Made by a program: the position numbers and the translations under genes. Below are positions 1,420 to 49,812 of a DNA stretch of 64,000 nucleotides, piece after piece (the stretch's first letter is position 1; each line of letters begins with the position of its first letter). The stretch lies in assembly GCF_033153115.1 (NCBI RefSeq), contig NW_026889805.1, positions 15,314,001 to 15,378,000 of the forward strand, written 5' to 3'. Source of the stretch: Saccostrea echinata (lineage: Eukaryota). A model generated the notes under the pieces. It ran no database searches, had not been told where the DNA came from, and saw nothing but the letters and a program-made list of their open reading frames with translations.

Positions 1420-2560
1420 AAAAAGGTGAAGATAACGAATAGTGATCGATCAAAAGAAAAAATCCACATACAATACAAATGCTGTGAAGTGGGCATAAAA
1501 CACGGACCCCGAAAATTCCAGAGTTGGAATCAGGTGCCTAGGAGGAATAAGCATTCCCTGTTGACAGATCACACCCGCCATGAGCCCTATGTATTGATCA
1601 GGTAGACGGAATATTCCGTAGTCTAATTCATTAAAAAAAAACAAAGGCCTCATACAATTGGTATGAAACACGTCAGGCAAAATACGACTCACTGATAGGT
1701 TACATCTGCTAACAAGGTCATTATAACGACCATAGAATTTACGAAATGCTGACTTTAAACGAGGTTTTTGAAATTCCCGTAACATCAACTTATCTGTCAG
1801 TAACATGCCTCAGTTTAAAAATTGATCGCACTCGAAGTATGCTCTTAAGTATAGAATAAGATGGAAGATGTAAACACCATATGCAGGTGATAGGTGATGC
1901 AGGTGATACTACATAAATAAACGACAGAAAGGCTGAAGTCCTCTTGCCTGTCATACAATTTACTTATTATAGTCATCTATAGTCAGTAAAACATCCAAAT
2001 ATGCAACAGATGTGGCAGACTCTGTGGTGTCTTTTATTTCAAGTTCGCTGGGATATATCGAGTTGACATATGACTGGAAGTCGACGTATGACTGTTAATT
2101 GATAATACGTCGTCGATATATCTAAATGTCGAGTTGAAAGCCACAGCAAGTGGGGTTTTTTTCTCAAGCTTTCAAATATATTCTGCGTTATAGTAATATA
2201 AAAACAGATCGGCTAATAAAAGAGCACAATTAATGCCTATCGAATTTCCAACAGTTTGTTGGAAGACTCCAAAAATGTTGTCAATGAGGAACTCCAGCAT
2301 CCTTTTAATATCAACCTCAGAGTACTTGTGTGTAGAATCAGAGTGATATTTAACAAATTTTTTGATGACTAATCTAAGAAAATTTCCGACTTCCATTTTT
2401 ATCGAAGAAGCAGTTGTCTATGATATCAAAAAGCCTTATTTTTAACTTATCGTAAGAATGATTGTAAAAGTGTAGAAAAGTCGTACGTTTTGATGTTACT
2501 GACTTTTGAATAATTTAGCGATTTTAAATTTTTTGAAAAGTTCTTTGGAGTTTTTGAAAA
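1420..2560 (-). mobile_element. Degenerate, 5'-truncated Penelope-like retroelement (probably Naiad clade), copy 1
   Basis: Frameshifted RT pieces: KTYDFSTL, MLEFLIDNIF..FQQTVG..IGINCALLLADLFLY, FRYIDD, and C-terminal RLKSAFRKFYGRYNDLV, followed by the conserved 3' element. No GIY-YIG domain follows the RT, which fits N-terminal-endonuclease (Naiad-type) or EN-less PLEs. The clade assignment is an inference. Confidence 0.8.
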
Positions 2561-3334
2561 CCGATTAATGATTGATTACTACTGTAACAATAATCTGATG
2601 TATATATTCAAAGACATATCTAAAAATAAAAATAATAAAAAATGAATTGACAGGTTAGATTGAGCCAAACATTTGGACGTAAACATTTGACGTTTTACTA
2701 ACCAGTCCAAATTTCACACATCTGAGATAATTTAAAAATTAAATATAAACAATCAAAAAGACGGAAAGATGGGGAGTAAAACGAGACCACCTATTCAAAG
2801 AGAAACAGCGTTCACAAAATTCCACAGATCAAAACCCAAAATAAATTCTGGGAAATAGACTATCAAATTGTGCAACAAATATCAGAATATTTTGATCAAC
2901 ATATAAAATAAATTTTGAAAAAAATATTTTGTTCAGCCTCTGCTGGTTGTATATAAAGTTGATAAATTGTGTACAAATTAGATGCCGGAAAATAAGTTTT
3001 AATCAAAGTTTTGGTATTTGCAGATAAAACAATACATTAATCAATAGTGACTATCGGGTGTCAAAGTTGCAAACTTTCTATAATGAGATTAATTCATTTC
3101 TTTTGAGAAAATCCATCAGCTTAGAAATGGTAAATTTTAAGAAGATAAAATATTGTCATGATTTACAATGGCTTCGATACAAGTACTTTTAATAATAGAA
3201 ATGATAATGATTCCAAAGTACCCATAAACATTTCTTATCAAATCAGAAAATATATCTCTTTTCCATAATTTTTCCACTTTGAATTGAAGACGTGATATAT
3301 TTTTCTTTTAAAAAAAAAAGTCTACACAAACAAA

Positions 3335-4775
3335 GGTGCATAATGGGTTCTAGTAAATGTTCTACCAAGTCTCTACCATTACTCCTCACCAAAACATTAA
3401 CAGTAGTGAAGGAGGAACATCAGGAGTAATATACAACAAAATATTCGAGAAATGGTATTAATCAAATGTGGATACTTAAACGCCAAGGAACTTTTAGAAA
3501 CTTTGAAATCACAAATTTTTAACAAAATCAATAGCATAACTTTTCAACTCTTCATGCTGCGATTTCCCAAGATGAAATTAAAGACCGCTTCTTGACATAA
3601 TAGAAAACTGCTTCTCTAATACATATGGAACTCGTAAATTTGCATACCTTGTCATTGGTCATCTGCAAACTTATTTTTAAAAAAACATTCTGATTCTACA
3701 CACAAGTACTCCGAGGCTGATATTAAAAAGATGTTTAAGTTTCTATTTGACAATATCTATGTAGATTTTAAAGACCAGTATCCCTTTTCACAAAAAAATC
3801 TTACGACCAAGATTCAAATTTTCCAATTCTTATATATGTACGTAAATTCTAGTAGGTTACAAAAATCTTTTATTTCTATTACAGTATATTGTGATTTATT
3901 CTTTTGAAATATTAATTTTCTTTACTGAACAAAGAAATTACAGAGTTGTCAAATTTCAATCTTAGTCGTTAGAATTTTTTGTGAAAAAGGCTACAGCCTG
4001 TCTTGCAACACGCTGTTGGAATTACCATGGGTAGTTATTGTGTCCGTTATTAGCAGAACTATTTATGTATTCTTATGAAGTAGAATTAATTTAAAAACTT
4101 CTACATGAAAAGAAGAAGTCCCTTGCTGTTGCATTCAATTGGACGTTTAAATATATCAATGACGTCTTATCAAATTAATTAGCACTATTATTTTCACTCT
4201 TTTGTCATCACTTTGATTTGATGTATCCCATTGAACTCGAAATACATGTAAAAGACACCACATAGTCTGACACATCTACTTCGTATTGGAGATTTTACTA
4301 GAGAAAGACATTGGTGGAGAACTAACATCTAGACTTTATAATAAAGGTGATGACTTCAACTTTTTCAATCGTCAACTTCCCTTATTATTGTATGTAGCAA
4401 TTTCTAAAGCGAGGCATACTATTAAAAATAAGTTGATTATATCAATATTCTCATTTATTGTCAACATTTCGCATATTCCATGGTCGATACAATGACCTTG
4501 TTAGCAAATACAAGTCATTCGTTTGGTCGAATGTTGACTGACATCTTTCATGCAAATTGCTCGCTCATTTTTTTTTTCACACTGAATCTGCAAAATTTTC
4601 CGTTTACCCGATCATGACAAAGTGCATACGGTGGATATGACTGGTTTACAGGGAAACTTACTTCTCCATGGCACCTGATCCCACCTCTGTTTTCAGAGGT
4701 CCGTGTTGGCTCTGCTAACAATTTCTATTGTTTCAATGGACTTTTGATCACTGTTCTTATCTTCAAAAGTTTGTA
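3335..4775 (+). mobile_element. Degenerate Penelope-like retroelement, copy 2 (inverted relative to copy 1)
   Basis: GSSKCSTKSL..LLTK, YSRNGINQMWILK, DSTHKYSEADIKKM, VGITMG, FKYINDVL, LTSRLYNKGDDFNF remnants with stops and frameshifts, plus the same 3' element at 4620-4712. Confidence 0.8.
3779..3993. mobile_element. MITE inserted in PLE copy 2
   Basis: Imperfect ~45-bp TIRs (tatcccttttcacaaaaaaatcttacgac / gtcgttagaattttttgtgaaaaaggcta) with a possible 3-bp CAG duplication. It interrupts the RT just before the VGITMG motif. Confidence 0.7.
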
Positions 4776-5511
4776 TGTCATATCATTTTTCCGAAATTTC
4801 AAAAATTGTGGAAGGCCTCCGCCTATTATTACCGAAATGTGATCATCAGATCTATCAATTCTACAATAAGATTATTGTTATCATAAGCATAACTCATTGA
4901 ACTAAGAATCTGAATAAAAGTTCTTATTGAGTGCATACTTGACTTGACGTCGACAAACTCCGGTTGTATCTTTTCGCACACCAGTTTAGATGTCACATCT
5001 CCGAGATCAAAGATCTCATTGTATATCGATATTTGTTTTAGAACTTTCTATCTCTCTCTGTCTGTCTCTTTGTTTGTCCAAATAAACCTTAATCATCATA
5101 TTTGAACTTGACACAAAGAAAGTTTATGATTATTTCCTTACTGGGAGTCATCTGAACAAAGTCAGAGAGATTGGAAGTTTAAAATTCTAGTTACAACTAC
5201 TGAATTGATATTCGTTTCAATTTTATGCATGTACTCGGCAAAAAGATAGGACAAATCATGAATAAGAGGTGGTAACTATCTGATCCAATTGTAAGAGGTA
5301 TAATATGTATGCTGTTTTGGATCTCGTAACCAGCCTCTATAACCAGGCAGAGCGCATGCGTGAAATAAATTTCCATCGAGATCGGAAAACAGCAGAGAGG
5401 AAATTCGGAATATATAATGGAAACTAGTAATGCGGAATGATACTATAGTCAGATGCAGAAATTTTTGCATAATTCGATCAACTTTTATTTAAAAAAAGCA
5501 GAAGAATAAAT

Positions 5512-5664
5512 NNNNNNNNNNNNNNNNNNNNNNNNNNNNNNNNNNNNNNNNNNNNNNNNNNNNNNNNNNNNNNNNNNNNNNNNNNNNNNNNNNNNNNNNN
5601 NNNNNNNNNNNNNNNNNNNNNNNNNNNNNNNNNNNNNNNNNNNNNNNNNNNNNNNNNNNNNNNN
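5512..5664. other. Assembly gap (153 N)
   Basis: Run of N; the corresponding stretch is present in the right arm (~15779-15881). Confidence 0.99.
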
Positions 5665-5920
5665 AAGTAACTGATTAATTTATTAAAAAATATATATATT
5701 TGTATTTTTTTTTTTTTGAATTCATTTATAACATTCTTTCCTTCATTTATTAATTATTCCATCCTTTAATTATTTATCTATTAATTAATTCATTGATTTA
5801 TTAATTTGTATGCATGTTTGTTTATTTATTTATTTATTTATTATTCTAATAATTAAGTAATTGATTAATTCATTAAGAAGTTCATTTATTTGTTTATTTA
5901 TTTATTATATTCATTCCTTC

Positions 5921-6082
5921 NNNNNNNNNNNNNNNNNNNNNNNNNNNNNNNNNNNNNNNNNNNNNNNNNNNNNNNNNNNNNNNNNNNNNNNNNNNNNNNN
6001 NNNNNNNNNNNNNNNNNNNNNNNNNNNNNNNNNNNNNNNNNNNNNNNNNNNNNNNNNNNNNNNNNNNNNNNNNNNNNNNNNN
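5921..6082. other. Assembly gap (162 N)
   Basis: Run of N; the corresponding stretch is present in the right arm (~15424-15527). Confidence 0.99.
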
Positions 6083-6159
6083 ATTGATTTATTTTTGCAT
6101 TTATTTATTGATTTATTTATGCATTTATCATATATTTCTTTTATCAATTAATTATTTTT

Positions 6160-7580
6160 ACAGGGTTTGTATACTGATTACCAGGGTCTGTTTATGTATT
6201 GCCATAGTTTGTTTACCATTACCAGGGTCTATATACCTATCACCAGGGTCTGTATACCTATCACCAGATTCTGTATACCTATCACCAGGGTCTGTATACC
6301 CATCACCAGGGTCTGTATACCCATCACCAGGGTCTATATACCCATCACCAGGGTCTGTATACCCATCACCAGGGTCCGTTTTATCTATCACCAGGGTCTG
6401 TATACCTATCACCAGGGTCTGTATACCCATCACCAGGGTCTGTATACTTATCACCAGGGTCTATGTACCTATCACCAGGGTCTATATACCCATCACCAGG
6501 GTCTGTATACCCATCACCAGGGTCTGTATACCCATTACCAGGGTCTATAAACCTATCACCAGGGTCTATATACCCATCACCAGGGATTGTATACCCATCA
6601 CCAGGGTCTGTATACCTATCACCAGGGTCTCTTTACTTATCACCAGGGTCTGTATACCTATCACCAGATTCTGTATACCTATCAACAGGGTCTGTATACC
6701 CATCACCAGGGTCTGTATACCCATCACCAGGGTCTATATACCCATCACCAGGGTCTGTATACCCATCACCAGGGTCTGTGGACTTATAACCAGGGTCTAT
6801 GTACCTATCACCAGGGTCTATATACCCATCACCAGGGTCTGTATACCCATCACCAGGGTCTGTATACTCATCACCAGGGTCTATAAACCTATCACCAGAT
6901 TCTGTATACCTATCACCAGGGTCTGTATACCCATCACCAGTGTCTGTATTATCTATCACCAGGGTCTGTATACCCATCACAAGGGTCTGTATACTCATCA
7001 CCAGGGTCTGTATACCTATCACCAGAGTCTATATACCCATCACCAAGGTCTGTATTATCTATCACCAAGGTCTGTATACCCATCACCAGGGTCTGTATAC
7101 CCATCAACAGGGGCTGTATTCCCATCACCAGGGTCTGTATACCCATCACCAGGGTCTGTATACTTATCACCAGGGTCTGTATACCCATCACCAGGGTCTG
7201 TATACCCATCACCAGGATCTGTATATCTATCACCAGGGTCTGTATACCCATCACCAGGGTCTGTATACCCATCACCAGGGTTTGGGTATCTATGAACAGG
7301 GTCTAAATCTGTAAATCTATGTCAAGGGTGTGTATTATCTGTCATTAGGGTCTGTATGTACCCATCACCAGGGTGTGTATATCTATCACCAGAGACTGTG
7401 GACCTATTACCAGGGTCCGTATATCTATTACTAGCGTCTGTATTTCTATAACCAAGGTCGGTATTATCTATTAAAAGGGTCTGTATACTTATCACCAGGG
7501 TCTATATTATCTACCACTAGGGTCTCTATTATCTATCACTATAGCTGTACATCTATCACCAGGGTCTGTATACCCATCAC
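6160..7580 (+). repeat. 21-bp tandem repeat (ATCACCAGGGTCTGTATACCY), left arm of foldback
   Basis: Roughly 65 units, with 23-bp variants (...CTGTATTATCT...); degenerate after ~7280. Confidence 0.97.
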
Positions 7581-8700
7581 CTGTTTGTCTGTCCGCAAAA
7601 ACGTGCCCATTACTTTTGATTGGTTGGACCTATGGCTTTCATATTTCACATGTGCATTCCTTGTGATAAGGCCTTTGTTTGGGTTCTAACATATTTGACT
7701 TTTTTGACCTTGATCTTTGAGTTTTTCCCACTTTTTCAAGAATTTACCAAACTTTAACCTTGGCTTTAACTTTTCAACAGTTGGTGCAAGGGCTTTCATA
7801 CTTTATACTAGTATGTGTATTCATAGTAGCAAGACCTTTGAACGGATATTAAAAATATTGATCTTGACCTTTGAGTTTTACCAACTTTTAAAAATTCTAA
7901 CCTTGAGAAATTAGTATCAGGGCTATTATTTTCCACATGTGTATTCCTTGTGACAAATCCTTTCTTTGGGTTCCGACATATTTGAAACTTTGACCTTTAT
8001 CTTGGAATAAGACATACTTTTGAAAAACTTTAATCTTGGCCATATATTTTGAACAGTTGGTGCTAATTCTTTAATGTTTTACATGTGTATTTCTTATGAC
8101 AAAGCCTTACCCTGGGTACCTTTAATTTGACCCTTTGACCTTGACCTTGCAGTTTGACCCACATTTAAAAAACTTTAACCTGAACTAAACCTTTTGAATG
8201 GTTAGTGCCTGGAATTTCTTATTTCTCAGATATATTCACTGAGAGTCCTTTCTTTGGGTAACAACATTTTTCAGCTATTAAGGACATACGCAACGTAGTT
8301 TGAACTTTATTGTCTTTTTCCCTGGAGTTGAAGATTTCCAATGCTTAAAGGAACTGTGTGCTACATTTTAATGTCTATATATGCTGTTCTAAAACAAATT
8401 TGGATAAACAAAACATCTAGAATATATGTTTAATAATTTTTGTATATTTTTCTTTGAATTATACAAGACTTTTCATCAATTGATATCTTTTCAAAACCCC
8501 TGGTAATGCATGCTGATTTTTTGTCTACGAACATCTGATGGCACTATAATCTTAAATTAAGAATATCTTGAAAAATTATCAGTAGGTAAGGTACGTTGCG
8601 TATGTCCTTAATATTTGAGTTTGAGTTGCATTTGAGAAACTTTAACCATTGTCAAAAGCTGCCATACAGGGACATCAGTGTTTCACAAACACATTTTGTT
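7581..8700 (+). mobile_element. Helentron-associated non-autonomous element (HINE-like) with ~166-bp satellite-like units, 5'-truncated
   Basis: Starts at a GTCT/GTCC microsatellite, has repeated gaccttgacc / tttcacatgtgtattccttgtgaca units, and ends in sub-TIR gggacat plus palindrome gtgtttcacaaacac followed by ttgtt. Confidence 0.75.
8282..8607. mobile_element. TTAA-targeting MITE (Kolobok-like)
   Basis: Perfect 16-bp TIR GGACATACGCAACGTA / TACGTTGCGTATGTCC, with TTAA at 8278-8281 and 8608-8611. A second partial copy lies at 33264-33395. Confidence 0.85.
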
Positions 8701-9502
8701 TTAATTTGAAATACCAAACAAAATTAAATTGAAATATTCGATAATAACCATTATAGTTTTTAGATAATTTTGTTCACTAAAGAAGAGAAAGTCCTTTGCT
8801 GTAAAGTGAGGTTTATTTGTACGTTTATTTGTTCACTAATTTGTTTATTTATTTTTGGCCTGAAATGACCATGTTATAGACCGTTCGAGAAATTAATACG
8901 ATATGTTCTTTGACATCAAACATATCAAACTTTCATGCATACTTAGCTTTGAAGTCTACATTTGGACTTTGCGACTTTGTAAAAATATTTTTTTAATGTA
9001 CGCCTGCACTGAAAATTTGAGTTTAAATTTCAATTTAAATTTAAGGAGGTATAACCTATCGATTACATGAATTTTTATTGGGGGAAGTGGGTTAAAGTCA
9101 CTATTTATAACAAAGTGTTGTCAGTCTAACTATCATGATAAATAAAGAAGGATGGCTAAATAATTGTCTGGAATGTGTTGCTTGGAATTTATTTCAAGGC
9201 CTAAACATGTAAATCAAGGTGTAGGGAAAGGTCGACCAATAATAACGACCTCACTATAGATTTTCAAGGCACCTAAATACTACAGATTTTATTTATTTCA
9301 TTTGTATTTACAATTCATCAAATTATAATTTCAGATTAACAATTTGTTATTACAATTTTTTATCTTTTATAAAACAAGTTAACATTTTATAATTGCAAAT
9401 TATTTGATTTGTTGTATAAATATTTTCCTTCCTACTGAGTTTATGTTAAAGTATGAATTTGAATTCCCCCAATACTGATGTACAAAAATCACCGTTACGG
9501 AA

Positions 9503-10055
9503 AACAAGATGTGTTTGTGAAACACTGATGCCCCCGTATGGCAACTTACAGCAAAGGTTAAACTTTCTCAAACGCAAATCAAATATGTTGGTACCCAAAG
9601 TAAGGTCTTGTCCCGAGGAATAAACCTGTGAAATATGAAAGCCCCGGTAGCAACGATTGAATAGATATGGATAAGGTTATTTTTTTTTCAAAAGTATGTC
9701 AAAAATCAAGGTCAAGGTCAAATGGTCAAAATTAATGGTGCCCAAGGAAAGGCCTTCTCCCAAGAAATACACCTGTGAATTATGAAAGCCAAAGCACCGA
9801 CCTTTCAAAAGTTATGACCAAGGTTAAAGTTTGATAAAATTTTGCAAAACTGGGTCAAACTCCAAGGTCAAGGTCAAATATGGTGGTACCCAGAGAAAGG
9901 TCTTGTCACAAGGAATACACATGTAAAATATGAAAGTCATAGCTCCAACCAATCAAAAGTTATGGGCAAGGTTAAAGTTTTTGCGGACAAACAGACAGAC
10001 GGACGGACAGGGCAAAACTACATACCCCCGAATCTTCGATACAGGGGCATAAAAA
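9503..10055 (-). mobile_element. Complete HINE-like (Helentron-associated) element, same family as 7581-8700
   Basis: On the minus strand: TTTTTATGCCCC...GGGGGTATG 5' sub-TIR and inverted repeat, (GTCC/GTCT)n microsatellite, ~166-bp units with caaggtcaaggtcaa, then GGGGGCAT sub-TIR, gtgtttcacaaacac palindrome and ATCTTGTT end. Confidence 0.85.
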
Positions 10056-12189
10056 TGCGAATAAAGCGTTCGATTAATTTATCTTATCCAATAAATTAAA
10101 GAATTGAGAACACTTAAACTGGTTGCAAATTGTACATCTAGTAGGAAAATTCTATGAAATATTTTGTTTATAAAACAAGTAGAATCAACAGTTAACACAT
10201 TAATCAAAGATTGTGTTTGCCTGCACATGATTAGAAAAACTGACTTTCTATGAAATTGCCCAAAAATGTACGATACATGGGAGAATTATTTGAAATCGCA
10301 AAGATATAGTCAGATAAGAAACAAACACACTCAATTTTGTAATTCATATTCGATTATCTTGTGATTTATTTTTGAAATTGTGTATACTTCATAATTATAT
10401 TTAAAAAATCCCTGTGATTCATATTTAATTATGCGAAAAGTTCATATTCGAAATCTTGTTACTGTGTATTTTTAGGGATGTCAAAATATTTATTTTCCTT
10501 AGTCGACTATTCGATAACATTATTCGAACGATAGTCGAATATTCGGAACATTTTCCTAAAATAAAATTTTAATATTTCAAACCTCACTTGTAAATGCAGG
10601 AGGTATTTATAACCAAAAAAAAAAACCTTTTTACCTCATATATACAAAAAAGTAACATCAATTGCCTCTGTTGCACATAGATGTTTGCAGGCACCTAACG
10701 TGTGGGCAGTGTGTTTATATGAAATAATTTTAGACCGTAAATTATTCATATATCAGTTTTTATTTTAGCAAGCATAAAAAAATTGCCAGCATGATATTTT
10801 AAAGTTTACAAAAATAAATGGAGGGGTGGGATGGGGGGGGGGGTGTTAATACACTATCTACGCCTTACTCTTTGAATATATGTATTGCTAATAAAATTAA
10901 TTTGGAAAGATATACATATCAATACTTCAAATAAAACGTTTTATCATAATTATCATTTTATCTTTCATGGAATTTTATTCAATTATTCTCCATTGCTAAA
11001 GCAAATACGCCGGGACAGTCTATGTGTTTGTTCATCACAAAAAATTGAACATTGGTCATAATTTTTTGTTTAGTTTATCAATTTCAAGAAATATTCATCT
11101 AATAGAAAATATATAATAATTTTGAGAAGATCGGACTCTCATATTCCACATATGAATTACGAATTACAAAATCTTTCTGAATTTATTTTTTTTTATCTTA
11201 TGACCTTGTCAGTGAAAGTTGATATACTTATAAAAAAAAAATAACCCTGACCTAAGCTTAGTATGGAATGAGCTATATGTTTTCATAATTGACCTGTGCA
11301 ATACCCGTGACAAAACTATAACAAGTCACTGGAATGTATATAGCCTAAGATCTTTGACCTTGGCATTTGACTTTCTTTTTACAAAACTTTTAATCCTGGC
11401 CAAAGCTTTGCACCTGATGAGACAGGACTTTAATATTTTCTTGTACATGAACATAGCTGTAACAAGACCTTCCAAATATACTTTGATTTTTAACCTCATA
11501 AACTTGACATTGAAGTTTGATCGACTTTCAAATCATAACTCGATCCTTGGTCCTAAGCTTTTAAACAGAACATCCCACTTTAAAAATATATAATAATTTT
11601 AAATATGATGAGCCGCCACGAAAGTCACAATATGCCATAGACGATTGCATCCCAACCAAAAAGGAAAAATAAACCAACAAAAAACGATTAAAGACATTCC
11701 ATATCATCATGAACATAGAAGAAATTTGAACTTTGTGTTGGTTGCTCTTCTTTTATGATAATTTTTACCATTTCACACTTTATTGATTAATTATGTAGAT
11801 ATGTATATCTTCACATTTTCTCTGGAACAAGTAAACAACATAATGGAATTTTTAGATTTCTCTCGATTTATGCAATAGAGGAATCAGGATACATTGGCAT
11901 TTACAATGTAAAGATAGTTCCACACAAATATAAATCTTTGTCCATTGTTATAAGTTTCTATAGTCTTTGCTTCCTCCTTGACAGGCTTACACTACAAAAT
12001 AAAAAGTAAATAAGATCAATATAACATTAGAGTCAAGGCATCTTAATCACAATAAAATCATTATAGTTCATTAAACAACTCATACGTTCTCCACAAGATG
12101 TTACGTTTATGAATACACCCTAAAAAGTAATTGGATTCATTTTCATAATGCAAACTATGTTGAAGATCACCCTACTAAAAAGATGGGAA

Positions 12190-15100
12190 CTAGACCCTGA
12201 ACGATGGAAGAAAAAACCGTGATGAAGGGTATATAGACCCTGGTGATTGGTATACAGTACCTGGTGATAGATAAACTGACCCTGGTAATGGGTCAAGAGA
12301 CCCTAGTGATTGGTATACAGAACCTGGTGATGGATAAACTGACCCTGGTGATGGGTCAAGAGACCCTAGTGATTGGTATACAGATCCTGATGATAGGTAT
12401 ATAGACCCTGATGATAGTTATAGATGGTGGTGGGTATATACAGACCCTGGTGATAAGTATAGAGACCCTGGTGATAGGTATACAGAGCCTGGTGATAGGT
12501 ATACAGACCCTGGTGATGGGTATACAGACCCTGGTGATAGGTATACAGAATCTGGTGATAGGTATACAGACCCTGGTGATAAGTAAAGAGACCCGGGTGA
12601 TGGGTATACAGACCCTGGTGATGGGTATACAAACCCTGGTGATGTGTATATAGACCCTGGTGATAGGTTTATAGACCCTGGTGATGGGTACACAGACCCT
12701 GGTGATGGGTATACAGACCCTGGTGATGGGTATATAGACCCTGGTGATAGGTACATAGACCCTGGTGATAAGTATACAGACCCTGGTGATAGGTATACAG
12801 ACCCTGGTGATAGGTATACAGACCCTGGTGATAAGTAAAGAGACCCAGGTGATAGGTATACAGACCCTGGTGATGGGTATACAGACCCTGTTGATAGATA
12901 CAATGTAATACAGACCCTGGTGATGGGTATATAGACTCTTGTGATGGGCATACACACCCTTGTGATAGGTATACAGACCCTGGTGATAGGTATATAGACC
13001 CTGGTGATAGATAATACAGACCCTGGTGATAGGTATACAGACCCTGGTGATGGGTATACAGACCCTGGTGATGGGTATACAGACCCTGGTGATAGATAAT
13101 ACAGACACTGGTGATGGGTATACAGACCCTGGTGATAGGTATACAGAATCTGGTGATGGGTATACAGACCCTGGTGATAAGTAAAGAGACCCGGGTGATA
13201 GGTATACAGACCCTGGTGATGGGTATACAAACCCTGGTGATGTGTATATAGACCCTGGTGATAGGTTTATAGACCCTGGTGATGGGTACACAGACCCTGT
13301 TGATGGGTATACAGACCCTGGTGATGGGTATATAGACCCTGGTGATAGGTACATAGACCCTGGTGATAAGTATACAGACCCTGGTGATAGGTATACAGAC
13401 CCTGGTGATAGGTATACAGACCCTGGTGATAAGTAAAGAGACCCGGGTGATAGGTATACAGACCCTGGTGATGGGTATACAGACCCTGTTGATAGATAAT
13501 ACAGACCCTGGTGATGGGTATATAGACTCTTGTGATGGGCATACACACCCTTGTGATAGGTATACAGACCCTGGTGATAGATAATACAGACCCTGGTGAT
13601 AGGTATACAGACCCTGGTGATGGGTATACAGACCCTGGTGATGGGTATACAGACCCTGGTGATAGATAATACAGACACTGGTGATGGGTATACAGACCCT
13701 GGTGATAGGTATACAGAATCTGGTGATGGGTATACAGACCCTGGTGATAAGTAAAGAGACCCGGGTGATAGGTATACAGACCCTGGTGATGGGTATACAA
13801 ACCCTGGTGATGTGTATATAGACCCTGGTGATAGGTTTATAGACCCTGGTGATGGGTACACAGACCCTGGTGATGGGTATACAGACCCTGGTGATGGGTA
13901 TATAGACCCTGGTGATAGGTACATAGACCCTGGTGATAAGTATACAGACCCTGGTGATAGGTATACAGACCCTGGTGATAGATAATACAGACACTGGTGA
14001 TGGGTATACAGACCCTGGTGATAGGTATACAGAATCTGGTGATGGGTATACAGACCCTGGTGATAGATATACAGTTCCTGGTGATAGATAATACAATTCC
14101 TGGTGATGGATATACAGACCCTGGTGATGTGTATATAGACCCTGGTGATAGGTTTATAGACCCTGGTGATGGGTACACAGACCCTGGTGATGGGTATACA
14201 GACCCTGGTGATAGGTATACAGACCCTGGTGATAAGTAAAGAGACCCGGGTGATAGGTATACAGACCCTGGTGAAGGGTATACAGACCCTGTAGATAGAT
14301 AATACAGACCCTGGTGATGGGTATATAGACTCTTGTGATGGGCATACACACCCTTGTGATAGGTATACAGACCCTGGTGATAGGTATATAGACCCTGGTG
14401 ATAGATAATACAGACCCTGGTGATAGGTATACAGACCCTGGTGATGGGTATACAGACCCTGGTGATGGGTATACAGACCCTGGTGATAGATAATACAGAC
14501 ACTGGTGATGGGTATACAGACCCTGGTGATAGGTATACAGAATCTGGTGATGGGTATACAGACCCTGGTGATAGATATACAGTTCCTGGTGATAGATAAT
14601 ACAATCCCTGGTGATGGATATACAGACCCTGGTGATGGGTATACAGACCCTGGTGATAGATAATACAGACCCTGGTGATAGGTATACAGCCCCTGTTGAT
14701 GGGAATACAGCCCCTGTTGATGGGTATACAGACCCTGGTGATGGGTATACAGACCCTGGTGTTGGGTATACAGACCCTGGTGATGGGAATACAGCCCCTG
14801 TTGATGGGTATCAAACCCTGGTGATGGGTATACAGACCTTGGTGATAGATAATACAGACTTTGGTGATGGGTACATAGACTCTGGTGATAGGTATACAGA
14901 CCCTGGTGATGGGTATACAGACACTTGTGATGGGTATACAGACCCTGGTGATAGATAATACAGACACTGGTGATGGGTAAACAGACTCTGGTGATAGGTA
15001 TACAGAATCTGGTGATGGGTATACAGACCCTGGTGATAAGTAAAGAGACCCGGGTGATAGGTATACAGACCCTGGTGATGGGTATACAAACCCTGGTGAT

Positions 15101-15345
15101 GGGTATATAGACCCTGGTGATAGGTTTATAGACCCTGGTGATGGGTATACAGACCCTGGTGATGGGTATACAGACCCTGGTGATAGGTACATAGACCCTG
15201 GTGATAAGTATACAGACCCTGGTGATAGGTATACAGACCCTGGTGATAGGTATACAGACCCTGGTGATAGGTATATAGACCCTGGTGATGGTATACAAAC
15301 TATGGCAATACATAAACAGACCCTGGTAATAAGTATACAAACCCT
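12190..15345 (-). repeat. 21-bp tandem repeat, right arm of foldback (inverted relative to 6160-7580)
   Basis: Roughly 145 units reading GGGTATACAGACCCTGGTGAT on the plus strand, with the same variant units as the left arm; degenerate below ~12430. Confidence 0.97.
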
Positions 15346-16804
15346 GTAAAAATAATTAATTTATAAAAGAAATATATGATAAATGCATTAATAAATCAAT
15401 AAATAAATGCAAAAATAAATCAATCAATCAATAAAAAAATAAATAAAAATACGAATAAATGAATGCATAAATAAATAGATAAATAATAAATAAATAAATA
15501 AATAAATTAATAGAATACGAAATAAATGAAGGAATGAATATAATAAATAAACAAATAAATGAACTCCTTAATGAATTAATCAATTACTTAATTATTAGAA
15601 TCATAAATAAATAAATAAATAAATAAACAAACATGCATACAAATTAATAAATCAATGAATTAATTAATAGATAATTAATTAATGGATGGAATAATTAATA
15701 AATGAAGGAAAGAATGTAATAAATGAATTTAAATAAAAATACAAATAATATATTTTTTAATAAATTAATCAGTTACTTAGTTAATTAATTATAAGAATGA
15801 TAAATAAATAAATTAAATAAATAAATTAATTAATTAATAATTGAATAAATAAATAAATAAAAACTAACTTTAAAGTTGATTAATTTATTCTTCTGCTTTT
15901 TTAAATAAAAGTTGATCGAATTATGCAAAAATTTCTGCATCTGACTATAGTATCATTCCGCATTACTAGTTTCCATTATATATTCCGAATTTCCTCTCTG
16001 CTGTTTTCCGATCTCGATGGAAATTTATTTCACGCATGCGCTCTGCCTGGTTATAGAGGTTTGTTACGAGATCCAAAACAGCATACATATTATACCTCAT
16101 TGTAATGGAGAACCATCAGTAGCTCATGCTTACAATGATTCGTTAAATCAGAGGACCTTAACCAAGGTCATTTGAACGATTCAAGGTCAAATACATTCCC
16201 ATTAAAAATGTATCATTCTCTGGGCAATTCATGTCTAAATTGAACATCAACATGCTATCTTATTCTTTATTTTTTCGATATTTACGAATATTCTCAAGTA
16301 AAGAAAGCAGTATTGTATTTTAAATAAAAATTTTATTACAAACAATTATTTTCTTAAAAATCTAAGCTGTTATTTGAATAGACTAATACATTTCTCGTTC
16401 AATTGATTAAAGCTTAAGTTAATTTTGATTCAAATGCAGCGTGATAGCTTTTTTACATATTGTTAAGTGACAAAAATTACTCAATTTTCATCATAAATGT
16501 ACATATTTAAAGAAATGTCTACAAATATTATTTTGAAATATAAAAATATCTACATGTATATAAAATTGAAATAAACCTTGAAGACTTTTTTTAAATTATA
16601 TAAACAAAACTTAAGTAATCTTAGGTTTCAAAAATCTAAGAAACTTTCGATAACCTCTTAGTGATTGAGGAGAAAACGGTTGCTTATATTGCCTTTTGAT
16701 CTTAGGTCCTATATACGCTTAGCGGGGACCTAAAAAATTAGAACATAATATCCTACAGCCAAGTATTGTTTCAAACAACTCCTCAAATGTAATTTAAAAA
16801 AACC

Positions 16805-17199: not shown

Positions 17200-19329
17200 T
17201 CACTTAGAAATCTTTGAAATAGGTGGCAATTTGCTTTGTTTTGATATGGGTAAGTCTGGTAGTTTGTCCACATTGGATGACTGAACTGGTGGTAGTTTTA
17301 CTTTCGTTTTGGATCTGAGCGCGGTCTTTGGGCGGCGCTTTTTCTTGGCGTCATTGTCACTGTCACTATCGCTACTACTACTACTAACACTAGACACCGA
17401 TAGACGGCGCTTTTTAGGTTTACCCGATTTCATACCAGGGAGTTTTCCTTTCTTTATTGCTATTGCTAACCCTGCTATTAATCCGACAGCAACAATAGCC
17501 GCAATAGTTACTCCAGCTATCAGTGCAACATCTTGCCAAAAAGTGCTGGTCTTTTCTCTCTCTGCAATTATGGAAGACAAAATTGGAAGATTGAAACACG
17601 TATATTTTACAGTAAATATAGTATATATTATATATGATTATATATGTACTTGTAGCAATCTCTCTTTTAATAAAATTCTCAATTCTTTATAGGTTGTTAA
17701 CCATACTAACAAAAACTTAAAGCTTAAAAGAACTGCATGTACTTTAATTAGTAGGTTATAAAGTTTTTGATACAATTTATGTTTACAAATATATCAGCCA
17801 AGTCCAATCAACTTTATAATTTTTTCTTATTAATGCATACAGTTTTGGATTTCTACCACTGGTGAGGTAATACTACCTGTGGTGACGTAGTACTTGATTC
17901 TGAATCCCTTGAACTGAGCAGTGGAGTCCGTAATGAAGGCCACTAGTACATAGGAGCCAGTGTACTGGGTGATGGTGGGCTTCTCCACCCCACAGAAAGA
18001 ATCCAGGACAGGGTACGTAGTGCAGGGACCTGGGGAAAACAAGGTATAGAGAAAACAATTAAGAATTAAGTGATGCAGGGGTGAAGTTTTCAAGATATTC
18101 AACTTTTACTACATTTACGAGTGATAAAGATACACAACTATTTGTCATATCTGACATGGTTATATTTAGCATCACTTAAAATGTAATTACCAGTTCAGAT
18201 CTTTCACAAACATAAATATATTACCTCTATATACTGTAACCTTGTCAAATGAACAGGACGGATTAGCCTCAATTCTAGAATCCTCTACTTCAAGCTTAAT
18301 ATAACCACTATCAGTGGGATTGTGAATCAGCCAGTAAACTGTTGTTGAGCTGAAAATTCAACAATTTGAGTAATAACATTAACTAGATAGTGTTACTGAG
18401 AATGAACATAATATAATGTTCCTTTAAAAAATTTATCACACTTACTTATCATAGTTATTAGGGTAATTAGGTGATTCAAAATACTGGGCTGTAGAATTGG
18501 CAACAAGATTTGTTACTCCTGCAGGTGGAACACAAGATGGGGCCGCTGAAAAAAATGTGTTGAGATTTGAGATTATTATTGAAAGCAAAAAAACCTGATT
18601 ATTTCCATGCAACAACGCCATCTACATTGTTGTGCACGAATTAATACCATCGACGACTTACAGTAGTCTGTAAGGGCTGTATACTCCAGATTGAACCCTC
18701 TTTGACCGACGGATCCATCCGACCGGAACCGGATGTACAACTTGTTGCTAGTGGAGTTGACGCTGCTAGAGATCTCCCCGCAGTATGTAGCAATCACAGC
18801 TGCCTCAGCACTGCCGCCTGTGTTTATGAATCAAAACAAACTTCATTGAACGAATATTTATCTACACAGGTAAGAAAGAAATATTTGTTTTAAGGAGTTA
18901 CAGAATTTCCAGCGCTGAAAAGAGATGACAACTAACAACATAATGAGTACTTAAAGGTTATAATTCAATTAAATGTTAATAGGAACCACGATAGGAACCA
19001 TGTCATCAGTGAGTTTCTAGATTATACGTACTATTTTCTCTAGAAAATTCAGACTAAACTATATTTCATAAAGTTGATAGTTTCCAGACATATAATGAAT
19101 ACGTTATCATAATCTATATATAAACTAAGGTAAATTTTCACCATCATGGATGTTAACAGAGTCTCCTACACAGTCCTCACTGTCTTCCAGATAGGAATCT
19201 ATAACCTTCAGCTGAATCAGACTTCCTTCCGGTCCCTGGATCAACCAAGAACATATCAGGTTCCTGTGGTGGAAATATCATTTACTAACTCCATGCAAAG
19301 GTAAATTACTCAAGGTTTTAATCCACTTA

Positions 19330-19419
<90 letters not shown>

Positions 19420-22400
19420 GGCTTGTATCTGATTCAGAGGCAACCATAGATAATGTGTCTAAGCCCTACTTACGGTGAGTAGAATATTGGATAGCTTGGA
19501 GACTGTATATATTGTGTGTCGTTTGTGGCTGTTAGCTGTATAGTACCACTGCTACACACGTCATTCGGTGGTTGTGTGGTGGTCGTCGTGGGGGCTTGGG
19601 TAGTGGTAGCAGCTATAAATGTCGATAAATTTAGTGAATGTGGGAACAATACACAAACTCGTTTTCTCATTCTTCTCGATGTTTATTATCAAAGCTTTAG
19701 CTTATTCATTGGAAAAATAAAACAAGTTGCAAGTAAGTTTTCTTTGGTCTTAACCATTTATTTTATTACAGAGAAATTTATCTTACCAGTTCCTTCTTGT
19801 CTAAAGCTCAAGACAAACCCATGTCTTGTCCAGCCGCTTCGAATGGATCTGAATTTGATAAAGGCATCCGTACCACTGGTTAAAAATGTCAAAGTATTCC
19901 TACTGGGAAATGTATCTCTGCTGTCACAGAATGTCTGGGTGAGAGGGGTGGAGGCATCACTAGACCCTGAAATAAATATGGAGAGGAGACTCACTTGACC
20001 TTGGATCTAGTAAGCTTAATGAATTATGATTTTATTATCTAAGTTTAAGTCATTGTTCAGCGTGTTTAGAGAAATATCCATACCGTCATATATATCAAGC
20101 GTGTCCGAGTAGCATTCCTCTCCGCTCATCAGATCAGAAAACAGAATCTGTATTTCTACCTTTGCAGATGAGGTGATGCGCCACTGACACAACGACCCTC
20201 TGTTTAAAAAAAAAACAATATAGCATCCTCAGTATCCTTAGTTCTTAATGGACAAGTAAGTATATCACATAGTTTCTTCCCACTTGTAAATTTTTTAAGC
20301 AGGTGTTTCTCCCAAGAAATTTATTTGTTTAAAGCAAATAAAAATGAAATAATAAAGGTTCCCTTACTCGTCGTAAGAGTCCGGCCATTGTTTGTTAGTC
20401 AGGTATTGGACGGTACCGGTTGCTGTCAAACTCACAACGATAGAAGCACAGCCACCCTGATCTACAAGATATCTTCAAATGATAATACTTTGAAAACTTT
20501 AGATTTAACTACCAAAAGAGTGATTCGATAATTTTATACATGTCTTCATAAGTTTAAGAACCTTCCATTTTTCCGATGAAGTATCTCATTGTGAAGCCGG
20601 CCATTTCTAAACTATAGTCACTTTTAAGTCGGATAAGTGCATCTTTTCCAGTGGACACAAACATCCTGCCCCGACGAGCTGTACCGCAGACCGTCACGGA
20701 CTGGGCGCTAGTGCTGGATCCTGTTATTAATCAGAATTACTTCAGAATCTTTAAATACATGTATAAATTTTAATATAGAAATTAAAATAAGTAAAAACGC
20801 CGGCTTTTTGCATTTCTTGTGAGATTAATTGTCTAAACTAACCGTCAAAGAACTGGAGGAAGTCATAGACACATTCTGGTCCCTCGCCATCTTCTATAAT
20901 GTACTCCCGCATGTCCACCACGACACGGTTACCATTCCCGGCAGTTATCTGCCACTTACAGTCCATGTTCCTGTAGAAGGTCGGTGTATTTTTAGAACAC
21001 AGCTTGTTTGATATAATACTGAGATATTGTAATTCACATTGCTATTACACGCATTATACAATAGAATTAATATATACATGTAGTCGAAGAAAGTTATGCA
21101 TCATTTTTATCGAGTCGATAAAAAGTTGTTTTAAAACTGATAAGCTTCCGATTCTGGATATTATTTAGTTAATTAGCAAAGTTCCATATGCAAGGTATCA
21201 GTATTAGGGTGTTTTTGTCAAAGCCATCCACATGGTTTCAGTTTTTGACAAACATTTAATGATCGATAAGATTTCAATATATTGGTATCATTTTTGGTGT
21301 TATTTAGTCAATGTCTGTATTTTGGTGTTATTTAGTCAATGTCTGTATTTTGGTGTTATTTAGTCAATGTCTGTATTTTGGTGTTATTTAGTCAATGTCT
21401 GTATTTTGGTGTTATTTAGTCAATGTCTGTATTTTGTGTTATTTAGTCAATGTCTGTATTTTGTGTTATTTAGTCAATGTCTGTATTTGGGTGTTATTTA
21501 GTCAATGTCTGTATTTGGGTGTTTTTTAGTCAATGTCTGTATTTGGGTGTTATTTAGTCAATGTCTGTATTTGGGTGTTATTTAGTCAATGTCTGTATTT
21601 TGTGTTATTCAGTCAATGTCTGTATTTTGTGTTATTTAGTCAATGTCTGTATTTTGGTGTTATTTAGTCAATGTCTGTATTTGGGTGTTATTTAGTCAAT
21701 GTCTGTATTTTGGTGTTATTCGGGTGTTATTCAGTCATGTTCCATGAGGTATTCGATAGTTCTATATAAGCAATTGAGTGTTATATACGGTCAAGTTACT
21801 CACGAGTAATAGGACACCTTCCATCCTGGGGAACTAAAGGTCTGGAGGGTCCGGGTAGCAGCAGGAAGACTCTCAGTGCTCACCAAGTTATTAGCACTGC
21901 ATTGACTAAGGGCTGTCGGAAAAAAAAATGAAAGAGATGTTGTTTCCGATCTTATTGAAAATCTTGGATACAGGAATTTCAAACGTCTCATTCATGTCAA
22001 ATCAAGAATTGTTCGTGTAACTGTCTACAGCGTAAAACTGCAAAAGTTTGAACAATTCACCTAACTAACAGGAGAATGAAACTTGCCCCAAACTTTTTTG
22101 AAGCGATAGGTTGTGGGGAAAAAAAACTTATATGACTATATCAATTCCCACAATAACATCATTTAATGGAATGATTGAATATTAAATCGAATTCTCTTCT
22201 CTCTATAACGTCTTTTCAGTCTAACCTTAAATATGGAACTTCGATTTTAAACAACCTTTTCAATTCAATGAACAAATCCTTACAATAAAGGGAAGAAGAC
22301 TGTTCTGGAAACACGAAAATTTTACGTGTAATTTGGCATATGGTATTGTCATGGAGAAAAACTTACAGTTTTTCAATATACCTGTTTATCTTTGAAATAT

Positions 22401-28600: not shown

Positions 28601-29315
28601 AATATCTCATTTACAAAGAACGAAACAACTTATGATTAGATAAATAACTGTAAAGGATAGAGAGGATAAAGTATATAATAAAATACAGTACTCGACGTCG
28701 ATTTATTGAATAAAATACTGTATAGACTGGTTAACGACATGATGGTGTTTAAAAAATAAACCGACCAATTACCCCCGTGATCTCATCCAGAGAGCCTTAA
28801 GCCATAACACATACAAAAAAAAAAGGATCAGGGTTTTTTAAAATTAAATTTGAAAGAAATTATTTTCAAATTTACACGTATTTTATTTTTTTTCCCGACT
28901 AACCGATAACAGATTTTCTTGTAAGGTTATAATGTTGTTTCCCCTCTTTTTCTTCAGATTCAAATGCACATACGAACCACAGTGCTGATAATTGTACTCC
29001 TGGAAATATATCAGCGTACAAGTAAGTAAAATTTCTCGATATTTTTCAATTCTTTTCGTTTCGCCTGGTAAATTAGCAAACAAAAATCAATAACTCAATG
29101 TCTGTCTAATTATTATGTCTTAACATTTAAATCTATTATTGTTTTTGAAAATTATACGAATTTTCACCTTTCGAACTTGGTCACGGAAATGTTTTTCAAG
29201 AACATTTGATATTCGGCTGAGGCGCCGTATTTTTTGTATCAAAATTCTTTGTTACACCGGATTCATTTTTGAGAGGATGAAAAAAAACTTTATTTAACTC
29301 AATAAAGCTAGATGA

Positions 29316-30045
29316 TTTTCTCGTTATAACTAGATAATAATCTTGTTGTAAAGAGATAGTTATCTCCTTTTAACGAGTTAGTTATCTCGTTATAACTACT
29401 TAGCACCTCGATATAAGTAGTTTGTTATCTCGTTATAACGAGATAATAATTTTTCTTCAGAGTTGATACCTCTTAGTAAAGAATGCAAGTATTGGAAATA
29501 AACTGAGTCGAGGCGATAAAATTTGTTTATAGTGTGCATAAAAAATTACTAACTCGTAATAACGAGATAACTAACTCGTTTTTACGAGATACAAACTCGT
29601 TAAAGCGAGATAACTAACTCGTTATGGTTAACTTGTTATAATCATGAATGAGATAACTGACTCTATATTTAAGGAATAACTGTCTAATTTTTTGGATTCA
29701 TGATGTGATCAATCGAGTGGCTTGCGTGATATGCCGAAGGCGTTTATGCATAAAATTATCACGCAAGCCAATCGACTGATCATCGTCATGAATCCAAAAA
29801 ATCTGACAGTTATTCCTTATATTTACATGCTCCTGATTCTGCAAATTCCCGTGCTAATAGCCCCGCTTCTGTCTCTATTTGTCCCGCCCCGCACGTGATT
29901 CTTTTTTAACCGCGCCTATCGATGAACCAGTAGATTTATGTAGAAATAAAGTATTTTTACAATTTGTAATTTTATCTCGGACAAAGACATTGGAAATGTA
30001 AATATAACGAGATACTACCTGTAACTCGTTATATCGAGATAACCA
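29316..30045. mobile_element. MITE-like element of ~22-bp palindromic repeats (TTATCTCGTTATAACGAG), interrupted by a hairpin element
   Basis: Two inverted clusters of tctcgttataac(g)ag units (29316-29450 and 29546-30045). Confidence 0.6.
29664..30006. mobile_element. Palindromic non-autonomous element with a T-shaped hairpin (possibly Crypton-derived)
   Basis: ~60-bp inverted arms at 29670-29819 enclose two mini-hairpins; the end motif tgtaaatataa recurs at ~29997; inserted at TATA within the host repeat. The family assignment is tentative. Confidence 0.65.
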
Positions 30046-31067
30046 TCGAATTAATTTTGTTTACCTTGTCAGAAATGATCCTCTCCGGCTTATCATTCGA
30101 ATAATTGATATTACATGTAGCGATATAAAAATTTCACAAGTTCTGGGGGTATATAGGAATCAACTTGTCCATCTGTCTGTCTATGCAATCGTATCAGGAC
30201 CATAACTTTGTAATAAGGAATTATTGGAAATCCATACTTGACACAAAGATTGCTTTTTACCTGAGGGTGTGCCATTACCTTGATTTAATGTCTTTTAGGA
30301 ATGATCTCGGCCACTGACTGAAAAAAGTGTATAAATTTTGTCTTGAGAAAAAATTATTGGAATTTCATACTCGACACAAAAATATACATGACCTGTTTGT
30401 CAAGACCTCTACCCAAGGTCATATGGGTAAGTTCAAAGTCACCAGTATTTTGTGTCTGGTCCATGACTATGTAATAGAAAAACAGTGGATGCAGCAATTT
30501 AAAAAAATGTTGTATAGATATCACTTTGTGAGATTGCTCATGGTACTTTTTGTTCGAATATTTGATTTTACCTTCGTGTATTTGAATAGGTATAGTAGTT
30601 TCCCCAATTATCAAAAGATGAAAATGACTTGAAAAAAAAACAGGGATTGCAAAATGCTAATTGCCTTATTTGTATTCAGTGACAAATAACAATAATAAAT
30701 CGACATATTAATTTTATTTGGCTGAATTGGCCACGACCCCTCAAATAAGGCAGCCGAGACGTAAAATGGTGTCCCTAAAAATGCAAGTGAACCCAGGCCC
30801 ACAGAACGCAGGGGAGCCCCCCTTTTTCTGAGTATATAATATTTTGCTATAGTAAATTTTCCTTAAGATGCTGGTCCCCACTTTTTTAATGATGTAGTTA
30901 GCTACAAAAACATTCACACTCTGAAAGAATACGATACAAATAAATAAATGGATATAATCCTAAGTGATTAAATCCCATTAATTTAAAATATTGATTACAA
31001 CAAAAAATTATTGATTACAACATCACAAACAAAAAATTATTGATTACAACATCACAAACAGGAACAA

Positions 31068-31478
31068 GTGTCATCACTTACTAGAATACGTGATATAACT
31101 AATATGTATCATCACTTACTAGAATACGTGATATAACTAATAAGAATCATTACTTACTTAAATACGTGATATAACTAAAAAGTATCATCACTTACTAGAA
31201 TACGTGATATAACTAATAAGTATCATCACTTACTAGAATACGTGTTATAACTAATAAGTATCATAGAATACGTGATATAACTAATAATATCATCACTTAC
31301 TAGAATATGTGATATAACTAATAAGTATCACCAATTAATAGAATACATGATATAACTAATAAGTATCACCACTTACTAGAATACAAGATATAACTAATAA
31401 GTATCATCACTTATTAAAATACGTGATATAACTAATAAGTATCATCACTTACTAGAATATGTGATATAACTGATAAGT
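31068..31478. repeat. 38-bp minisatellite (TATCATCACTTACTAGAATACGTGATATAACTAATAAG)
   Basis: About 11 units, period 38. Confidence 0.95.
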
Positions 31479-31659
31479 GATGCCTCGTATTGAAAATAAA
31501 TTAGTGATATTCAGTATTCGAATAGATAAATTTCCGGTGCAACTTGTTAATCGCAAACATTACATAATTATTAAATTCTACAATCAGACAGAATATATAA
31601 TACAAAGCATTAAATACAGAATGTTTGTGTAATATGGAAATGAAATGTATGGAGATAAT

Positions 31660-32434
31660 GAACAGTATTCAAGCTCAAAAGTCCATTAAACAGTACAAAT
31701 TTTGGAGCAGAGCAAACATGGACCTCTAAAACATCAGAGGTGGGATCAGGTGCCATGGAGGAGTGAGCATCCCCTGCCTACCGGTCACACCCGCCGTGTG
31801 CTCCTTGTCATGATCGGGTAATAACGGAAAAATCCGTTGACAATTCAGTGTGTAAATAATGGCCTACAATCAGTATGAAAAACGTCAGTCAGCATTTGAC
31901 TTAATGATAAATTGTATTTGTTGACGACATTAAACGAGACTGCTGATATTCATGTTTCATCAACTTCTTTGTCAATAACTTACCTCGTTTTAGGAATTGT
32001 TCATACGTAGAGCATGCTCTTGTGTATCGAATCAACTGAGAGATATAAACCCCATTTGCAGGGGATGAAGGTATATTGCTGCATAAGTGAGGGAAGTTGA
32101 TGATTGAAAAGTTAAAGTCATCACGTTTATCATAAACTTGGTTGTTAGATTACCATTAACGTCTTTTTCAAGTAAAATGTCCAAATATGAAACAGATGTG
32201 TCAGACTCTGTGGTATCTTTTATTTCAAGCTCACTGGGATATATCGTATCGACCTACGAATGGAAATAACCATTGTTAAATGACAGTACGTCGTCTATAT
32301 ATCTAAATGTCGAGTTGAAGGTCACAGCAAGTCTTTTCTTCTTTTCACATACAAGATTTTGAACAAATTCTGCTTCATATGAATACAAAAATAGGTCTGC
32401 TATTAACGGGGCGCAATTGGTACCCATGGGTACC
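31660..32434 (-). mobile_element. Penelope-like retroelement copy 3, 3' part
   Basis: PMGTNCAPLIADLFLYSYEAEFVQ, TFRYIDDVLS, YDKRDDFNFSIINFPHLCSNIP and the intact 3' structured element. Confidence 0.85.
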
Positions 32435-49150: not shown

Positions 49151-49513
49151 CGTTTATTGAAAAAGAATCTGCCGCCATTTCGTTTAAGGGACATTTATTC
49201 TAAAAATTTACCACTGCATATAATTTAAGAATACCACAGCATATAATTATGAAACCACAACATATATAATGATGAAACCACAGCATATAATTATGAACTC
49301 ACAGCATATAATAAAAGACCCACAGCATATAATTATGAACCCACAGCATATAATCTTAGACCCACAGCATATAATAACAGACCCACAGCCTATAATTATG
49401 AACCCACAGTATATAATAATAGACCCACAGCATATAATAAAAGACCCACAACATATAATAAAACACCTAACATAACGCACCCATGGCGTTCCATAGGTTT
49501 GACCTGATGTCAG

Positions 49514-49812
49514 GTCGCCCGCTTGGCGCAGTGGTTAGAGCGTCTGCTCTAGAGTCGCGGAGTAAGGAGTTGATCCTTACGTTGCGGGTTCGAATCCCGC
49601 TGTGGGACGTTGAGACCGGTCCTTCGGATGAGACCGCATAAACCGAGGTCCCGTGTCGCAGTAGGTGCTAGCACGAAAAAGATCCCTCACTGCTCAATGA
49701 GCCTAAATGCCGAGTATAGGTCAAAAATTTGCAGCCCTTCGCCGGCAAGTGGTGGCGTCTCCATATGAGTGAAAAGTTCTCGAGAGGGACGTTAAACAAC
49801 ACACAAACAAAA
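49514..49812 (+). mobile_element. tRNA-derived SINE with V-domain-like core (V-SINE family)
   Basis: Pol III A box TGGCGCAGTGG and B box GGTTCGAATCC; central GTCCTTCGGATGAGAC..TAAACCGAGGTCCC typical of V-SINEs; (AC/A)-rich tail; 12-bp TSD ACCTGATGTCAG at 49502-49513 and 49813-49824. Confidence 0.9.

Follow-up and report, generated by a model that had tools for sequence, protein, structure and literature searches.

A 64,000-nucleotide (nt) stretch of the Saccostrea echinata genome (assembly GCF_033153115.1, contig NW_026889805.1, positions 15,314,001 to 15,378,000; referred to here as the window) contains two long inverted arms with a 21-bp satellite, which a preliminary description had assigned to a foldback transposon. 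This raised the question of whether the arms and the DNA between them constitute a single mobile unit and whether such a unit disperses the satellite. Our analysis indicates that the structure at positions 5295-16098 (10,804 bp), delimited by self-comparison of the window and direct alignment, is very probably a non-autonomous cut-and-paste DNA transposon of the foldback type, with long composite terminal inverted repeats (TIRs), that moved as a single unit and carries CgiSat33, a satellite known from Crassostrea gigas. The proposal of a foldback-type, non-autonomous bivalve element inserted as one unit gained support from the arms, from the duplication that surrounds them, and from the lack of a transposase.

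Both arms end in a unique tip. The left tip (positions 5295-5511, plus strand) starts with GAGG and the right tip (positions 15883-16098, minus strand) ends with CCTC on the plus strand; the two were identical in 214 of 217 alignment columns and differed by two substitutions and one gap, in agreement with the near-identical tips of about 217 bp and the GAG...CTC ends described previously. The mirror symmetry of the arms ended exactly at a direct repeat, ATTGTAA, located on the plus strand at positions 5288-5294 and 16099-16105. When duplication lengths from 2 to 15 were tried, an exact direct repeat was obtained at 7 only, which confirmed the claimed 7-bp target-site duplication, and the chance identity of two random 7-mers from the window amounted to 1.9 × 10−4 (2,000,000 draws). 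Alternative end placements with 6-, 8-, or 9-bp duplications were ruled out by the flank sequence. Alignment of the left and right flanks did not rise above shuffled sequences (100 of 300 shuffles reached its score), and no empty-site paralogue of the flanks was found in the window. By eye, the left flank contains a GTCT-like microsatellite and the right flank a CL6-like unit; the flanks at approximately 5045-5294 and 16106-16190 resemble a decayed HINE-type repeat split by the element, with weak computed support.

Apart from its partner, the tip had no further match in the 64-kb window, and neither arm contained an inner tip. Within the left tip, we identified an internal inverted pair (5310-5326 and 5377-5394), absent from the preliminary description, and a perfect palindrome, which proved to be the 8-mer CGCATGCG instead of the 9-mer quoted before. 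The fold of the tip had a z score of −2.4, and 3 of 200 shuffled sequences folded equally well. The internal inverted pair is a putative binding site. Contigs of prokaryotic genomes gave 0 matches to the tip motif, which was uninformative.

Inside the tips, both arms continue with an AT-rich tract and then with the 21-bp array. The tracts, previously given as about 600 bp of ATTT-rich sequence, were indeed present in both arms, but their lengths differed: the left (ATTT)n-like tract (5512-6160, plus strand) comprises 649 bp with 13% GC and 315 of 649 bases given as N, and the right tract (15347-15882, minus strand) comprises 536 bp with 12% GC. In its readable parts, the left tract shared 92% and 96% identity with the right one. 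The 21-bp satellite reported for both arms was likewise found in each, with 67.0 copies and a degenerate inner end in the left array (6161-7581, plus strand) and approximately 148 monomers in the right array (12191-15346, minus strand), where the tandem count over positions 12228-15346 was 73.9 copies of 42 bp. The outer edges of the two arrays were in register, including an odd first unit of 41 bp. While 12 monomer variants were common to both arrays, 24 occurred only in the left and 37 only in the right one. The shared order of variant monomers scored 20.0, compared with a mean of 11.9 and a maximum of 14.5 for shuffled arrays (0 of 60 shuffles reached the observed score). Since the monomer order is shared beyond chance, both arrays descend from one ancestral array. 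The right array was later lengthened through recent block duplications: at the six offsets examined, it contained duplicated blocks of 197-429 bp with 96.8-100% identity. The longest exact match between the left and right arrays was 99 bp.

The array is unrelated to the tip. No monomer-like sequence was found outside the arrays at 5 or fewer mismatches anywhere in the window, the tip included, and an origin of the satellite from tip sequence was rejected for want of a match. As the 21-bp unit is free of stop codons in five of six frames, the long open frames within the arrays were not taken as genes. To look for a transposase fused to the satellite, the satellite translation was used as bait: 0 matches at an E value of 1e-5 or lower were obtained among 8,000 scored candidates with lengths of 548-1747 amino acids, and one weak, unnamed match with 36% identity among a further 8,000 shorter ones. 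Among cluster representatives, 479 low-complexity, unnamed matches were obtained and not used, and Atlas scores of at most 0.87 were uninformative.

The satellite itself corresponds to CgiSat33, a 105-bp satellite that makes up 0.05% of the C. gigas genome (PMC8268682). Compared by eye with the commonest monomer of the window, the five 21-bp subunits of CgiSat33 matched at 18, 19, 20, 18, and 16 of 21 positions, i.e., 91 of 105 in total, and their majority consensus, also read by eye and not aligned, was identical to that monomer. Exact 14-mers of the window repeat missed CgiSat33 because the published variant differs. In one C. gigas assembly, CgiSat33 was reported at 3,191 units spread over 9 of 10 chromosomes, in another at 2,789 units over 8 of 10, and its Repbase column reads '-' in the 2021 satellitome listing (PMC8268682); according to PMC11136912, later Repbase releases keep assigning such satellites to elements. 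Among the open-access papers covered, the names CgiSat33 and CgiSat43 (the latter is discussed below) were found in a single one. The 21-bp unit and a similar base composition are thus common to the published satellite and the arms, whereas CgiSat33 was published as a stand-alone satellite and is located here inside both arms of a TIR element. The earlier suggestion that the element disperses a satellite gains support from the distribution of CgiSat33 over 9 of 10 chromosomes and its listing without a Repbase match; the satellite, however, had already been catalogued. We infer that CgiSat33 travels in the arms as a passenger, in which case the family would be a vehicle of this satellite.

Between the arrays lies a spacer of 4,609 bp with 31% GC (7582-12190). 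As claimed, it contained no transposase: the longest stop-to-stop frame was 119 amino acids, of the 62 frames of at least 35 amino acids compared with Pfam, none matched a transposase family and 3 gave unrelated matches below the curated cut-off, and no transposase remnant was seen in the spacer or the tips. A search of the whole window against Rfam yielded 0 matches at gathering scores. Instead of unique DNA, the spacer contains nested old repeats. At positions 7582-8702 (plus strand) we identified a repeat with internal units of approximately 146 bp that we label, by resemblance, a HINE/pearl-like non-autonomous Helentron; its microsatellite-side end is truncated by the left array, and a small TTAA-bounded MITE (a miniature transposable element with inverted repeats) is nested within it (8278-8611), part of which recurs at 33260-33401 with 93.7% identity. 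A second HINE-like repeat (9501-10056, minus strand), with a microsatellite, a terminal hairpin, and units of 147-148 bp, lies in the opposite orientation and is 71-86% identical to the first. The third (11130-11565, plus strand) is a strongly decayed remnant with weak matches only. The HINE label is based on the microsatellite, the hairpin, the 146- to 148-bp units, and a motif shared with the Cg_HINE cluster CL6 (PMC7492417).

Because the left array truncates the first HINE-like repeat, the interior must at some stage have undergone a deletion or replacement. The nested and diverged old repeats also make the spacer look older than the divergence of the tips. We interpret the spacer as old host-type repeat DNA that was either inherited from a donor or captured by gap repair.

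How might such an element move? A DDE transposase encoded elsewhere would bind the 217-bp tips and excise the unit, which would then have been inserted here with a 7-base staggered cut. This insertion was probably fairly recent, as judged from the intact duplication and from a divergence of about 1% between the tips. CgiSat33 would be carried passively in the arms. If the arms recombined with each other, the spacer would be flipped, and larger segments could be inverted if dispersed copies did so; cruciform extrusion across a spacer of 4.6 kb is unlikely.

The composition of the spacer bears on a variant of this explanation that we regard as quite possible, if not as the one we favor. On arrival, the element may have had a middle that was shorter or coding, and host DNA may have been copied in later to form the present spacer, by gap repair or template switching of the Pack-TIR type, so that the 10.8-kb form never moved as such. 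A MITE nested in a HINE-like repeat and HINE-like copies so much more diverged than the tips would be expected under this scenario, as would the junction between the left array and the truncated repeat, and most single-copy animal Pack-TIRs are reported to arise by such capture (PMC8277862). On the other hand, a donor copy could equally have had the old spacer, and the window revealed no locus from which the spacer could have been copied.

Two further explanations concern the symmetry itself. A single element could be mimicked by two separate insertions, in opposite orientation, of a repeat that is smaller or has only one arm, or by an inversion involving two copies, and the unequal arrays with their different inner ends and a spacer that resembles ordinary intergenic repeat DNA would suit such a history. 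Yet this scenario does not predict the exact outer direct repeat, the chance of which is given above, and the tip matches its partner only, with no inner tip on either arm; we consider it highly improbable. An assembly artefact, in which a false inverted duplicate, or an inflated right array, resulted from a fold-back read or a misjoin, appears even slightly less credible. The runs of N in the left arm and the right-array blocks of 99-100% identity, which an assembler could duplicate, are compatible with it, but the arms differ in substitutions and array content, with exact array matches no longer than 99 bp, and the symmetry ends at a direct 7-bp repeat between unrelated flanks. An artefact could change the length of an array, hardly the ends of the element.

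We therefore favor a single foldback transposon that moved as a unit with CgiSat33 in its arms, on the understanding that several observations weigh against it. Roughly half of the bases in the left AT-rich tract cannot be read, the inner array ends are degenerate and differ between the arms, and the left array cuts into the HINE-like repeat. The window contains a single copy of the element, and the published CgiSat33 pentamer has another order of variants than the arm arrays. Neither the searches with satellite translations nor the 5′ ends displayed for the curated bivalve families (PMC10294476) revealed an autonomous partner. Nothing in the element supports a role of the repeats as extra binding sites, which the analogy with Galileo would suggest (discussed in PMC4079207); the lack of kinship between satellite and tip likewise leaves the repeats unsupported as amplified transposase-binding sites.

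To which superfamily the element belongs is less clear. It shows the hallmarks of the foldback class, i.e., long modular TIRs with internal tandem repeats that are unequal between the arms (PMC4079207, PMC3169594), and a target-site duplication around the whole unit. One copy does not fix the duplication length of a family. As to the families that come into question, P-type elements end in CA...TG, hATw is the hAT group with 7-bp duplications, and Sola2 and Sola3 have ends of the form GRG or GAG together with a duplication of 4 bp or of TTAA. The ends of the present element would fit Sola2 or Sola3, but the duplication does not (one of four bases matches at 4 bp, and TTAA is absent). The 7-bp duplication lies within the 7-8 bp of P elements and Galileo, whereas the GAG...CTC ends differ from theirs and ATTGTAA differs from the Galileo target GTANTAC (PMC4168063). 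Duplications of 7 bp also occur in some hAT families, and PMC4455052 gives, as an example, a query for hAT families annotated '7-bp TSD'; the ends, however, are not of the hAT type. Four of five hATw entries in PMC10294476 start with TAGC and the fifth with GGGT, on which ground this group was rejected, and the other hAT entries displayed there start with CAG or TAG. Mutator-like elements (MULEs) usually generate duplications of 8-11 bp (PMC6446971, PMC4858842), compared with 7 bp in our single copy, even though one rice MULE-calling pipeline accepted perfect 7-bp duplications (PMC4858842). Their long, G-initial TIRs are matched by the GAGG start, which is a weak feature; 26 of the 27 bivalve MULE-MuDR consensus sequences displayed, of 38, start with GG or GA (PMC10294476).

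Comparison with the curated bivalve DDE library of PMC10294476 was based on supplementary files 24 and 25, with approximately the first 400 letters per entry; the library, for which 762 families are stated, is restricted to autonomous families and has no entry for P elements. Five entries start with GAG (one Kolobok, three Tc1/mariner, and one Sola1), and none of them resembles the tip of our element; no MULE partner with the ends of the element was seen among the visible 5′ ends. Tip and satellite motifs gave a single internal chance 10-mer and no terminal match in the bivalve DDE file, and 0 matches in file 25. The same motifs gave one chance match, to a bacterial paper, in the full text of open-access papers, and family names of the form 'DNA7-n' were not encountered together with Crassostrea or Repbase in that literature. 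The element family was not found in print among open-access papers. The claim that the element fits no known family cleanly thus holds insofar as no curated bivalve DDE family displayed is like the tip; it goes too far insofar as a Mutator-like origin is plausible, given the GG or GA starts and the accepted 7-bp duplications. We consider Mutator-like the most likely superfamily, although it is unproven and does not reach an even chance. An undescribed lineage is a good deal less likely, a Sola-like or other affiliation somewhat less likely again, and P/Galileo-like and hAT are both improbable to a similar degree. We have filed the element under no superfamily.

Both the architecture and the link from foldback elements to satellites are already known from Tetris and Galileo. 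Tetris of Drosophila virilis is non-autonomous as well, with modular long TIRs, an outer unique domain, a non-coding variable middle, and TIR-internal tandem repeats that feed satellite DNA; it differs in its 8- to 10-bp duplications and in its 220-bp units, which are kin to the flanking domain (PMC4079207). In our element, the 21-bp units have no relation to the tip, from which the array is separated by an AT-rich tract. Galileo, of the P superfamily, shares the 7-bp duplications, the long TIRs, the AT-rich segments, and the unequal tandem repeats, and 9-kb Galileo copies without transposase exist; in contrast, its palindromic target GTANTAC is poorly fitted by ATTGTAA, and our element has no THAP transposase (PMC4168063). 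Most foldback elements are MULEs (PMC4079207), and Mutator-like elements such as Tm1/Phantom and the bivalve MULEs resemble ours in their long TIRs, G-initial ends, internal short tandem repeats, and uptake of foreign DNA (PMC6446971, PMC3169594, PMC10294476). In the bivalve MULEs displayed, however, repeats, if any, start within the first bases of the tip, whereas those of our element begin approximately 870 bp inside, and no displayed bivalve MULE entry starts with GAG (PMC10294476). The Cg_HINE non-autonomous Helentrons are known carriers of dispersed satellite-like arrays in C. gigas, and HINE-like repeats occur in our spacer; the Cg_HINE elements belong to the rolling-circle type, have their array in the center, and lack a target duplication, unlike an element with arrays in both inverted arms and a duplication (PMC7492417). 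What is new here is that a catalogued C. gigas satellite without a known carrier was found in the arms of a TIR element.

A second, unrelated foldback-like element is located at positions 47996-49495 of the window. It has TA..TA ends, with 13 terminal bases identical, and is flanked by GGTTTG, an exact duplication of 6 bp (found at length 6 only, of 2-12); both of its arms contain CgiSat43 arrays, of 18.3 and 10.8 copies. The consensus of the array at 49234-49461 is a rotation of CgiSat43 with 21 of 21 bases matching, and CgiSat43 is listed without a Repbase match in the C. gigas satellitome (PMC8268682). Since TA..TA ends and 6-bp duplications are the signature of IS3EU (PMC10045372), the element may be called IS3EU-like, a label given by its ends. 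No transposase was found in the one frame tested against Pfam. A small repeat in its spacer recurs in inverted orientation at 57886-58063. A 111-aa frame in the same spacer (48893-49225) is reminiscent of a Penelope-type reverse transcriptase and had no Pfam match. Directly after the second element, a segment (49511-49810) with a tRNA-like head was noticed by eye and is probably a short interspersed nuclear element. The occurrence of two unrelated TIR elements with 21-bp arrays within 64 kb suggests that this design is common in the genome; the second carrier makes the first element less unique and the general point about satellite carriers stronger.

The remainder of the window contains genes and further repeats. 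A multi-exon gene for a CUB-domain protein (Pfam CUB), with a predicted membrane segment near the C terminus, occupies positions 17200-21000 on the minus strand, its stop codon lying approximately 1.1 kb from the right end of the foldback element. On the plus strand, a soluble guanylate cyclase beta-1 gene at approximately 43700-45400 has one exon that is unusually long and stays open over about 1 kb. This exon gave a mollusc-like signal, and its best named full-exon single-domain matches, among proteins of at least 616 aa, came from gastropods at about 65%. A 410-aa reverse transcriptase frame of a non-long-terminal-repeat retrotransposon (Pfam RVT_1, E value of 2e-27) is located at 55909-57138. 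Fragments at 1498-4765, 31650-32429, and 53640-54333 are 67-76% identical and represent one decayed repeat family in both orientations, probably retrotransposon remnants. Short palindromic minisatellite clusters at 29308-29825 and 32915-33226, with periods of 22 and 41 bp, match their own reverse complement and are possibly small foldback MITEs, and additional short tandem arrays were found at 21292-21720 (28 bp), 31066-31478 (38 bp), 50281-50469 (21 bp), and 51723-52046 (32 bp).

For oyster genomes, these results concern the way in which satellites spread. Helitrons are regarded as the main satellite spreaders in C. gigas, and active propagation by other elements was considered unlikely for satellites partially similar to them (PMC8268682). 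It is tempting, if speculative and in our view rather unlikely, to see the CgiSat33 element as an undescribed cut-and-paste lineage with GAG...CTC ends and 7-bp duplications that, together with the IS3EU-like carrier of CgiSat43, reveals a second, Helitron-independent satellite route in oysters, in which unrelated TIR transposons were convergently loaded with 21-bp repeats and account for the majority of satellites listed as unrelated to mobile elements. The kilobase-long inverted arms may cause structural variation as well as assembly errors, and the tip provides a probe for an autonomous partner. The element suggests how CgiSat33 spreads. Furthermore, PMC11136912 asks whether oyster satellites unrelated to transposable elements exist and proposes that certain carriers still await characterization; with CgiSat33 and CgiSat43 located in the arms of two different TIR elements, this question becomes testable by one genome search.

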